The notes under the pieces are model-generated. The model did no database searches, was not told where the DNA came from, and saw only the letters and a program-made list of their open reading frames with translations. The translations under genes were made by a program, and so were the position numbers. DNA of 17,334 bases, from the IMG/VR virus record IMGVR_UViG_2690316086_000006; one strand, given 5' to 3'. The stretch is from a virus (taxonomy: Duplodnaviria; Heunggongvirae; Uroviricota; Caudoviricetes). Shown here one piece after another: positions 7,745 through 8,838 of this stretch; the first letter of the stretch is position 1; every line of letters starts with the position of its first letter.

Positions 7745-7767
7745 ACCGCCCTTTCAGGCGGCCTCCT
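7745..7767 (-). promoter_or_regulatory. Leader element: AGGAGG Shine-Dalgarno followed by a GAAA-loop hairpin (copy 1)
   Basis: Minus-sense AGGAGG-CCGCCU-GAAA-GGGCGG, then 6 nt, then the ATG at 7739. Confidence 0.45.
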
Positions 7768-7826
7768 GATGTTTTGAGGGTGCAGAAATCCCTCCGGTTA
7801 AGGATTAAATTTTTAACTAAATTTAA

Positions 7827-8462
7827 TTATTCAGGCGCGATAAGCTGTTCCGCACAATCCAGCAATGCTTCTGTCGCTTCCTTAAGCGTTACTGTATCGC
7901 TATCATCCAGTCCTGCAACTTTTTCGTACCTGACAAACGCCGCGCAAAGCTCGTTAAACAACCCCGCCCGTACTTCAGCCAGGAAAGCGTCGGTGGCCGG
8001 AGTTTCAGGAATCCGTCTCCTCATCCGTTCTATTGCATGATTGAACCCGAAATCTTCAGCAAGAGATACGTCATCCATATTGTCATTGTCGTCCTCAATA
8101 TCCCGTGGTTCTGGAATTGCAGACTTTATTACCGCATTCTCCGCCGCCAGCGCCACAAGATTAGCTTTCAGCTCTGCAATTCGTTTGTTTTGGGCTTCCC
8201 GTTCATCCAGTAGTGCCAGCGCAACATTTGGATTAAAAGCAGCAATAAATTCAGCGTTTGCATAAGCCTGAACATCTGTTTCAACCAGGCAGTTAACATG
8301 ACATTCTGCAATTACGCCACCGGGCTCTCCTTTCCATTTTTGACAAACAAAAACTCCTGTTATATTCCCATGCTGATTGCCCGATGTATGCCCTACGATG
8401 TAGCATCCTTTAGTTGCTTTCTCTGCTGCTTCACGCAGCGCCTGATAGTCAATCTCGCTCAT
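7827..8462 (-). CDS. Ea22-like family protein (211 aa)
   Basis: N-terminus MSEIDYQALREAAEKATKG and internal KRIAELKANL shared with the paralog at 9441-9902; family name from memory. Confidence 0.6.
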   Translation of the reverse strand: MSEIDYQALREAAEKATKGCYIVGHTSGNQHGNITGVFVCQKWKGEPGGVIAECHVNCLVETDVQAYANAEFIAAFNPNVALALLDEREAQNKRIAELKANLVALAAENAVIKSAIPEPRDIEDDNDNMDDVSLAEDFGFNHAIERMRRRIPETPATDAFLAEVRAGLFNELCAAFVRYEKVAGLDDSDTVTLKEATEALLDCAEQLIAPE

Positions 8463-8635
8463 TCATCGCCCCACTCATCACAATATGCTTCGACCGGATT
8501 TTTTCCTGCTTCATAATCATCACGCCATGCTTCAGCATCAGCAGCACTGCCACCACGTAACTCTGCATATTCCATTAACAGTTCATGCCATTCTTCAAAA
8601 CTGACGCTGTATTTAGTTGAACCAAAATCAGCCAT
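8459..8635 (-). CDS. Small acidic protein (58 aa, MADFGSTKYSVSFEEWHELL...DEWGDE)
   Basis: Hand-translated ORF below the track size cut-off; its TGA overlaps the downstream ATG (ATGA) and its ATG overlaps the upstream gene end. Confidence 0.45.
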   Translation of the reverse strand: MADFGSTKYSVSFEEWHELLMEYAELRGGSAADAEAWRDDYEAGKNPVEAYCDEWGDE

Positions 8636-8810
8636 TTTGTTCTTCCTCTTCGTCTTTTATTTCGTGATATGAATAATTGCAGTAGTTAAAGAAAATATCT
8701 TTTGCTTCGTCATGTATTTCATCAGGCGTCGCATCATCATCCACTTCGAATTCATCCTCGAAATCTCCACCGGCTATTCCCGTTTCAATAATTATTTTAA
8801 ACTTTCGCAT
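8628..8810 (-). CDS. Highly acidic small protein (60 aa, about 20 D/E)
   Basis: ORF preceded by the Shine-Dalgarno-hairpin leader element. Confidence 0.5.
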   Translation of the reverse strand: MRKFKIIIETGIAGGDFEDEFEVDDDATPDEIHDEAKDIFFNYCNYSYHEIKDEEEEQNG

Positions 8811-8815
8811 TTAAC

Positions 8816-8838
8816 TACCGCCCTTTCGGGCGGCCTCC
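8816..8838 (-). promoter_or_regulatory. Leader element: AGGAGG Shine-Dalgarno followed by a GAAA-loop hairpin (copy 2)
   Basis: Minus-sense AGGAGG-CCGCCC-GAAA-GGGCGG, then 6 nt, then the ATG at 8810; 22 of 23 nt identical to copy 1. Confidence 0.45.

Follow-up and report, generated by a model that had tools for sequence, protein, structure and literature searches.

How does a ribosome reach a start codon whose Shine-Dalgarno (SD) sequence lies 22 or 23 nucleotides (nt) away? The question is raised twice by the 17,334-nt stretch of viral DNA in IMG/VR record IMGVR_UViG_2690316086_000006, which we refer to as the window. The window is a lambdoid Escherichia coli prophage, and prophages of E. 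coli O26 RM8426 and other Shiga toxin-producing E. coli (STEC) strains match it at 100% identity. On its minus strand, a DUF7167 gene and a DUF4014 gene are each preceded by the same unit, in which AGGAGG is followed directly by a GC-rich hairpin with a GAAA loop and, a few nucleotides later, by ATG. Comparison with related sequences suggests, with a probability of about 0.55, that this unit is a portable split ribosome-binding site of the type known from T4 genes 38 and 25, and that it also serves as a homologous crossover point at mosaic boundaries.

Two copies of a Shine-Dalgarno and hairpin core

The 22-nt pattern AGGAGGCCGCCYGAAAGGGCGG has two exact matches in the window, both on the minus strand (8818-8839 and 7746-7767). 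It has no match in 200 dinucleotide-preserving shuffles even when three mismatches are allowed, and at that tolerance the window itself still yields only the two sites. A previous inspection of the letters alone, hereafter the sequence-only reading, had reported a duplicated SD and GAAA hairpin ahead of an ATG, and this duplication is borne out. The location it gave (7745-7767 and 8816-8838) was right, but the exact positions were 1-2 nt off, and the stretch identical between the copies is actually 26 nt long (TCAGGAGGCCGCCYGAAAGGGCGGTA; 8841-8816 and 7769-7744, minus strand). The sole difference between copy A and copy B is C8828 versus T7756, which makes the loop-closing pair C-G in the former and U·G in the latter, so that the earlier description of a single change that keeps the pairing was correct.

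In copy A (TCAGGAGGCCGCCCGAAAGGGCGGTA, 8816-8841, minus strand), the SD AGGAGG (8839-8834) is followed by the 5′ arm CCGCCC (8833-8828), the loop GAAA (8827-8824) and the 3′ arm GGGCGG (8823-8818). Copy B (TCAGGAGGCCGCCTGAAAGGGCGGTA, 7744-7769, minus strand) is built in the same way, with the SD at 7767-7762, the 5′ arm CCGCCU at 7761-7756, the loop GAAA at 7755-7752 and the 3′ arm GGGCGG at 7751-7746. Read along the minus strand, copy A stands in the context ...TAATGTC-AGGAGG-CCGCCC-GAAA-GGGCGG-TAGTTAA-ATG (ATG at 8810) and copy B in the context ...AACATC-AGGAGG-CCGCCT-GAAA-GGGCGG-TAAGAA-ATG (ATG at 7739). The core of copy A begins 2 nt past the TAA stop (8846-8844) of an upstream open reading frame (ORF) of 70 amino acids (aa; 8844-9056).

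Both genes served by the unit are annotated on the minus strand by the Prokaryotic Genome Annotation Pipeline (PGAP). Copy A leads through the spacer UAGUUAA (8817-8811) to the ATG (8810-8808) of the DUF7167 gene (ORF 8628-8810, 60 aa; PF23768, E=8e-15), spacer and gene together spanning 8628-8817. Copy B leads through UAAGAA (7745-7740) to the ATG (7739-7737) of the DUF4014 gene (ORF 7521-7739, 72 aa; PF13198, E=6e-22), together spanning 7521-7745. GGGCGG is separated from ATG by 7 nt (TAGTTAA) in copy A and by 6 nt (TAAGAA) in copy B; the sequence-only reading had 6 nt for both. From the end of AGGAGG to ATG the distance is 23 nt in copy A, as that reading estimated, and 22 nt in copy B, in both cases beyond the limit of ~15 nt for direct initiation. 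No other SD-hairpin-start design is present in the window besides these two copies, the remaining matches being a terminator and a weak internal match.

Both leaders, whose folding had been suggested as a check, are predicted to form a 7-bp stem closed by the GAAA loop. The stem consists of six G/C or G·U pairs and a seventh pair between the last G of the SD and the U after GGGCGG (G8834-U8817 in copy A, G7762-U7745 in copy B). The isolated hairpins have energies of -14.4 kcal/mol (copy A) and -11.8 kcal/mol (copy B), and in contexts of 120 to 400 nt the pair probability of the stem is at least 0.85 in both copies (0.85-1.0). In the same contexts, the SD bases AGGAG of copy A are unpaired with a probability of 0.82-0.99. 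Predicted binding to the anti-SD at the 3′ end of 16S rRNA amounts to -10.3 kcal/mol for AGGAGG, compared with -6.7 to -7.4 kcal/mol for GGGCGGU of the 3′ arm, which is locked in the stem and could act as an SD only after melting of a hairpin of -12 to -14 kcal/mol. By these energies AGGAGG is the only strong SD.

Spacing, stem variation and a proposed split ribosome-binding site

To our knowledge, very few genes have been described with a split ribosome-binding site, and T4 genes 38 and 25 are the classic cases. There, an intervening hairpin shortens the spacing from 22 to 5 nt (gene 38) and from 27 to 11 nt (gene 25; PMC3014915), and destabilizing mutations lower initiation (PMC3014915; PMC7297116). 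The prophage unit shares with the T4 sites a good SD far from the AUG (22-27 nt in T4) and a stable hairpin that fills the gap, which would here reduce 22-23 nt to 6-7 nt, and both lie on phage polycistronic mRNAs. Features of its own are that the hairpin starts right after the SD, that the last G of the SD is in the stem and that the loop is a GNRA tetraloop. Unlike the T4 sites, each of which belongs to one gene in one lineage, the 26-nt cassette recurs in temperate lambdoid prophages ahead of genes from five or more families. Function has been proven experimentally for genes 38 and 25, whereas for the prophage unit we infer it. A ribosome-binding region split by a stable hairpin is also found at E. 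coli thrS (PMC7297116), but that hairpin is a protein operator upstream of a normally spaced SD, and the prophage hairpin stands between SD and start.

The sequence-only reading had suggested searching for the motif in other phages, and it proves to be common. An exact-pattern scan of IMG/VR found it in at least 120 viral contigs, and a scan of 5426 complete E. coli genomes with a 46-nt query spanning the unit gave matches in 2135 (~39%), at up to 6 places per genome and with at least 80% query coverage in 1520 of them, amounting to roughly 2,400 occurrences. The Rac prophage of K-12 has no copy of the unit, so K-12 datasets are unusable for studying it. No Rfam family covers the hairpins, either at gathering thresholds over the whole window or at E up to 10 over 7500-9100, where matches were at chance level only, and a search of the searchable literature for the hairpin sequence in DNA or RNA form found nothing.

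The unit occurs in two upstream contexts. In the first it follows the last codons and stop of the 70-aa gp16-like gene (...CGATTAATGTC), as copy A does. In the second, which is that of copy B, it closes a ~90-nt intergenic block located behind Ead/Ea22-like genes, whose C-termini are of at least six kinds. The genes that follow the unit fall into at least five families. Besides DUF7167, DUF4014 (in three N-terminal variants) and the Q antiterminator (PF06530), these are one of the MTELTKEQ type, whose C-termini are mosaic, and one of the MQEIKENI type.

Two further occurrences stand apart. In one IMG/VR contig, GGAGGCCGCCCGAAAGGGCGG precedes a gene for a small terminase subunit (PF05944), at 10 nt from its ATG, and the upstream context is unrelated; this is either an independent reuse of the unit or chance. 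In the P1-like Punavirus vB_EcoM-Ro157c2YLVW (80397-80427), the end of a gp16-like gene is followed by a degenerate unit, GGGATG-CCGCCCGAAAGGGCGG, and the junction is thus also found outside lambdoid genomes.

The distance to the start codon is held within narrow limits. Spacing and orientation were read from 129 occurrences on viral contigs, among the matches listed. Nearly all of them run in the sense direction from an SD to a nearby start codon, and a few have lost the downstream ORF or retain it only in truncated form. The gap from GGGCGG to the start is 6 nt (TAAGAA, TAATGA), 7 nt (TAGTTAA, TAGTGAA, TAAGACA), 8 nt (AACAGATA) or 9 nt (TAATGAAAA, TAACAAATA), and in these occurrences no gap of 6-9 nt contains a GGAG, GAGG or AGGA motif. 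The lone longer class, the 11-nt TGGAGATAATA ahead of the Q-antiterminator gene, has its own GGAG.

The DUF4014 gene allows a comparison with leaders that do without the hairpin. DUF4014 loci were gathered by protein similarity, with the leader playing no part in the choice; of the 82, the SD-hairpin leader is present in 63 and a conventional one in 19. The conventional leaders consist of AAAGGAGAGTGAT with ATG or GTG, or of AAATGGGAGTGAT with ATG, and place the SD 6 nt from the start; the Shiga toxin (Stx) phage P27 is an example. This distance equals that between the 3′ end of the hairpin and the start in the hairpin class, and homology between the two classes of loci begins at about the second codon. 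The same gene thus appears to be served by either an ordinary ribosome-binding site or AGGAGG plus hairpin, and because the conventional SD lies at the same 6-nt distance, the hairpin seems to behave as if it had zero length.

Variation within the stem was collected from the pattern scan together with samples anchored on the intergenic block, the DUF4014 start and the DUF4014 protein, which yielded 21 different hairpins and 106 different contexts. The 5′ arm shows C-to-T at four of its five C positions, in 26 contexts (62 instances), and the 3′ arm shows G-to-A in 2 contexts (3 instances). For the closing pair, which no search had fixed, the figures are 14 contexts with C-to-T and 1 with G-to-A. 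A C-to-T change in the 5′ arm keeps a G·U pair in the sense RNA, where the antisense RNA would have C·A. G3-to-A is present in 6 contexts, one of them fully compensated (CCACCC/GGGTGG), and the frequent SD variant AGGAGA turns the seventh pair from G·U into A-U. In the proposed register 95.6% of cells are paired, as against 30-60% for slid registers, and nearly all copies have a GAAA loop, the rare exceptions being GGAA, GGCA, UAAA and AAAA. This pattern is suggestive, not conclusive, of selection on pairing in the sense RNA.

Several points weigh against the split site. Covariation is not significant, the score being matched by 140 of 500 column shuffles, with a single double change among 39 distinct sequences, because there is too little variation for it to rise above them. 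Deeper covariation is out of reach owing to the narrowness of the DUF4014 family, for which a species-wide genome scan with the DUF4014 profile returned only two loci, in E. coli and Shigella. Deamination bias on the coding strand could lie partly behind the C-to-T excess. The sequences are young and recombining, and their conservation could come from recency or gene conversion rather than selection. In copy B, the first four SD bases are mostly paired in the predicted ensemble (unpaired probability 0.11-0.43), their partners being anti-SD-like sequences of the upstream intergenic block. In addition, one 151-nt minimum free energy (MFE) structure of copy B exchanges the hairpin for pairing with the end of the upstream gene, while the centroid retains it. 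Given the mostly paired SD and the alternative MFE structure, copy B may be less simple than copy A. It is also conceivable that a melted hairpin exposes GGCGGU at a good distance from the start and so supports weak initiation without looping.

Even so, the structured spacer that the sequence-only reading proposed is the explanation best supported by the comparative evidence, namely the fixed gap of 6-9 nt, the hairpin-less homologues and the changes that keep pairing. It fits copy A, with its predicted free SD, more simply than copy B, whose SD is predicted to be mostly paired. On the delayed-early polycistronic mRNA, which is transcribed as the window's minus strand, AGGAGG would pair with the 3′ end of 16S rRNA, and the adjacent GC hairpin of 6-7 bp with its GAAA tetraloop would fold by itself and loop out 16-18 nt. 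The linear distance of 22-23 nt between SD and start codon would thereby shrink to an effective 6-7 nt, and the start codon could enter the P site. By analogy with T4, the hairpin would be needed for initiation or would enhance it. Because the unit has its own SD and a self-contained structure, it would work ahead of any coding sequence; because its 26 bp are identical in many co-resident lambdoid prophages, it could act as a point of homologous crossover, allowing the genes upstream and downstream of it to be swapped. This proposal goes beyond the sequence, stability, distribution, positional constancy and mosaic junctions that we observe directly.

If the split site is real, temperate coliphages, Shiga-toxin phages included, carry a natural and highly prevalent example of it. 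Its reuse before unrelated genes would offer an unusually clean system for the accommodation of a spacer hairpin by the 30S subunit. For annotation, it would account for DUF7167 and DUF4014 starts that seemingly have no normally spaced SD. Both kinds of element, split translation initiation regions and boundary sequences, are known; this member, with its prevalence and portability, is apparently undescribed in the searchable literature.

Cassette boundaries and competing explanations

What, then, does the duplication mean? The sequence-only reading overlooked this point: the two copies are the boundaries of one 1,072-bp cassette. Between the cores (7770-8815, minus strand) lie the DUF7167 gene, a 58-aa ORF (8459-8635), an Ead/Ea22-like gene (7827-8462) and the intergenic block. 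Related phages do not have this cassette as a unit. In contigs of another type, represented by L011, only one core lies between the gp16-like gene and DUF4014. In the alignment to L011, window segments 9126-8816 and 7769-7493 abut and overlap by exactly 26 nt. This layout, from the gp16 end through one core to DUF4014, is found in 64 of 80 loci and is the commonest for this DUF4014 allele. Relative to it, the window has a 1,072-bp insertion flanked by the cores as direct repeats.

Other contigs show further exchanges at the same place. In L015, L037 and L074 each of the two cores is followed by the other's downstream partner. DUF7167, DUF4014 and MTELT-type genes each occur behind both upstream contexts, so that every combination is represented, as the four-gamete condition for exchange at the core requires. 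The core therefore looks like a boundary sequence, being a short sequence at gene boundaries with non-homologous flanks in all combinations and with a cassette insertion or deletion that it bounds, and recombination would have taken place inside it. Short conserved boundary sequences have been proposed at lambdoid module junctions (the Susskind-Botstein model and the HK620 comparison, as cited in PMC3029335). The prophage core resembles these in being a common short stretch between unrelated flanks, with exchanges consistent with homologous recombination, and differs from them in being simultaneously a complete structured ribosome-binding unit. It would supply a concrete case for the long-debated boundary-sequence model of mosaicism, with a 26-bp junction and alleles with and without the cassette. 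A repetitive extragenic palindrome (REP) or a miniature inverted-repeat transposable element (MITE) would be expected in either orientation and independently of translation signals, and in our sample nearly all occurrences are in the sense orientation and run from SD to start. Integron attC sites were considered and set aside as an analogy only, as there is neither an integron integrase nor an R/L box pattern.

The strongest competitor to the split site builds on these same junctions. It holds that the core is mainly a linker at the DNA level, spread through homologous module exchange among lambdoid prophages, with the hairpin merely tolerated and initiation relying on any SD contact. In its favor, the core lies exactly at the edge of homology between unrelated flanks, all flank combinations exist, and the prophages encode recombinases of the RecT/exonuclease type. 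Boundary sequences of this short kind have already been proposed for lambdoid phages, as PMC3029335 records, and in L081 another mosaic junction lies at the first GGAGG of the intergenic block, which is there positioned as an ordinary SD. However, a linker leaves unexplained why the core should form a GC hairpin that is perfect and capped by a stable tetraloop, why substitutions favor G·U on the sense strand only, and why the start distance stays at 6-9 nt with spacers that lack an SD. Furthermore, the downstream genes belong to conserved Pfam families and hence must be translated. We regard the linker as possible, but clearly less probable than the split site.

A fuller version of the split site, which we put forward tentatively, would combine the two roles. 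Selection would then have favored the core as a plug-and-play translation unit that insulates itself, and co-resident lambdoid prophages would also use it as a homology arm when they exchange cassettes by a Red/RecET-type pathway. If so, it would be a recombinase-independent analogue of the integron junction, through which promoterless accessory genes are shuffled together with a context-independent ribosome-binding site. The hairpin would in that case set the geometry between SD and start and keep the SD from pairing with neighboring coding sequence.

The hairpin might alternatively serve the mRNA itself, either as a 3′ barrier that protects the upstream cistron from exonucleases or as a 5′ cap-like structure left after RNase E cuts in the A/U-rich block, the proximity of the SD being incidental. 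The very stable GC stem, the GNRA loop, the position inside a long polycistronic operon and the A/U-rich stretch upstream of the hairpin in the intergenic version would all suit such a role. Against it, the context of copy A has no A/U-rich block, the SD-hairpin core alone being common to both contexts, and the core includes an SD and abuts a start codon, neither of which a stabilizer needs. We consider this explanation unlikely.

Still more doubtful is an operator for an RNA-binding protein, whether a translational repressor or a boxB-like antitermination site, that would control the downstream gene. A GNRA-type loop on a short stem beside an SD does resemble known protein-binding operators, and the loop is nearly invariably GAAA. 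A repressor is disfavored by the finding that no candidate protein co-occurs consistently with the unit and that intact loci have GGCA, GGAA and UAAA loops. The nut boxB role, which the sequence-only reading had offered as its alternative, finds no support. boxB is a 5-bp stem with a 5-nt GNRA-like loop, and like it the prophage hairpin is small, has a purine-rich loop of the G-A-A-A type and lies in an early operon of a lambdoid phage. Unlike boxB, it has a longer GC stem of 6-7 bp, a 4-nt GAAA loop and no boxA, and it occurs in many copies before many different, unrelated genes. Four near-matches to boxA (CGCTCTTA-like) are present in the window (1478, 9315, 12651 and 14501), fewer than expected by chance, and none is near the minus-strand hairpins. 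The position is also wrong, as the hairpins lie ~5 kb downstream of the cro-like gene (13344-13604) and after the replication genes, and the unit occurs in both left and right operons of different phages (left in ArgO145). The PGAP annotation of the window, which is only part of the prophage, contains no N-like gene, and the immunity region is Rac-like (YdaT).

An intrinsic terminator stem or tail acting on the upstream gene is very improbable: the GC stem-loop is similar in size to terminator stems and a plus-strand scan gave a weak site overlapping copy B, but the tails on the transcribed strand (UAGUUAAAU and UAAGAAAUG) have no U tract and the minus-strand scan has no match at the hairpins, in contrast to a genuine terminator at 3587-3558 (AGCCACCGGAAGGUGGUUUUUUU), so that the motif is very unlikely to be the mere tail of an upstream terminator that the sequence-only reading had envisaged.

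Genomic setting of the unit

Both hairpins lie, in the sense orientation, within long polycistronic delayed-early transcripts. According to PGAP, the rightward early operon on the minus strand starts with a cro-like regulator, YdaT, DUF1376 (O-like), the P protein, small genes and the 70-aa ORF. It continues with copy A, DUF7167, the 58-aa ORF and the Ead/Ea22-like gene, and then with the intergenic block and copy B, DUF4014, an HNH endonuclease and others, and ends with RusA, DUF1133, a helix-turn-helix (HTH) protein and three tRNAs. Pfam matches were obtained for DUF7167, DUF4014, Ead_Ea22 and HNH.

The conserved intergenic block of ~90 nt (7740-7833, minus strand), with copy B at its 3′ end, runs CTGAATAATTAAATTTAG...AATCCTTAACCGGAGGGATTTCTGCACCCTCAAAACATC and then into the core, the 60-odd nt ahead of copy B occupying 7770-7833. 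It begins inside the last codons of the Ead/Ea22-like gene (stop TAA 7829-7827) and contains a second SD-like GGAGGG (CCGGAGGG), an anti-SD-like CCCTC, an A/U-rich stretch and AAUCC/GGAUU. Its CCCUC is able to pair with either SD-like sequence, and the block could be a translational switch or an S1 enhancer. RNAalifold recovers nothing in it beyond the GC hairpin, a 5-bp stem (AAUCC/GGAUU) and an SD contact of 3 bp, with no covariation, and a promoter scan found no promoter inside it. We considered whether TGAATAATTAA at the start of the block is a universal stop in three frames for genes that arrive there and rejected this, as the same middle TAA terminates 31 of 36 distinct upstream ORFs.

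The match of the window to the Stx2a phage ArgO145 is limited to 5981-9491, that is 3.5 kb at 99.8% identity. In ArgO145 this block stands in the leftward early operon, between recombination genes and int, and here in the rightward one, between replication and nin-like genes; the accessory-gene block has thus moved between two early operons.

Elsewhere in the window, the canonical intrinsic terminator AGCCACCGGAAGGUGGUUUUUUU (3587-3558, minus strand) lies downstream of the DUF1133 gene (3679-4221). The tRNA genes Arg, Arg and Ile (2115-2363, minus strand) follow the HTH gene (2392-3105), a place where Stx-type phages carry tRNAs, before the late and toxin region. A match to the small RNA family STnc100 (RF02076, 104.7 bits; 1320-1492, minus strand) lies downstream of the tRNA cluster. 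The leftward operon contains DicF RNA (Rfam RF00039, 75 bits; 16102-16153, plus strand) between ydfC and dicB. The prophage also carries two toxin-antitoxin pairs (6046-6608, plus strand, and 14170-14879, minus strand): a ParD/ParE pair sits amid the genes of the early operon, on the opposite strand, and HigB with an HTH antitoxin adjoins the immunity region.

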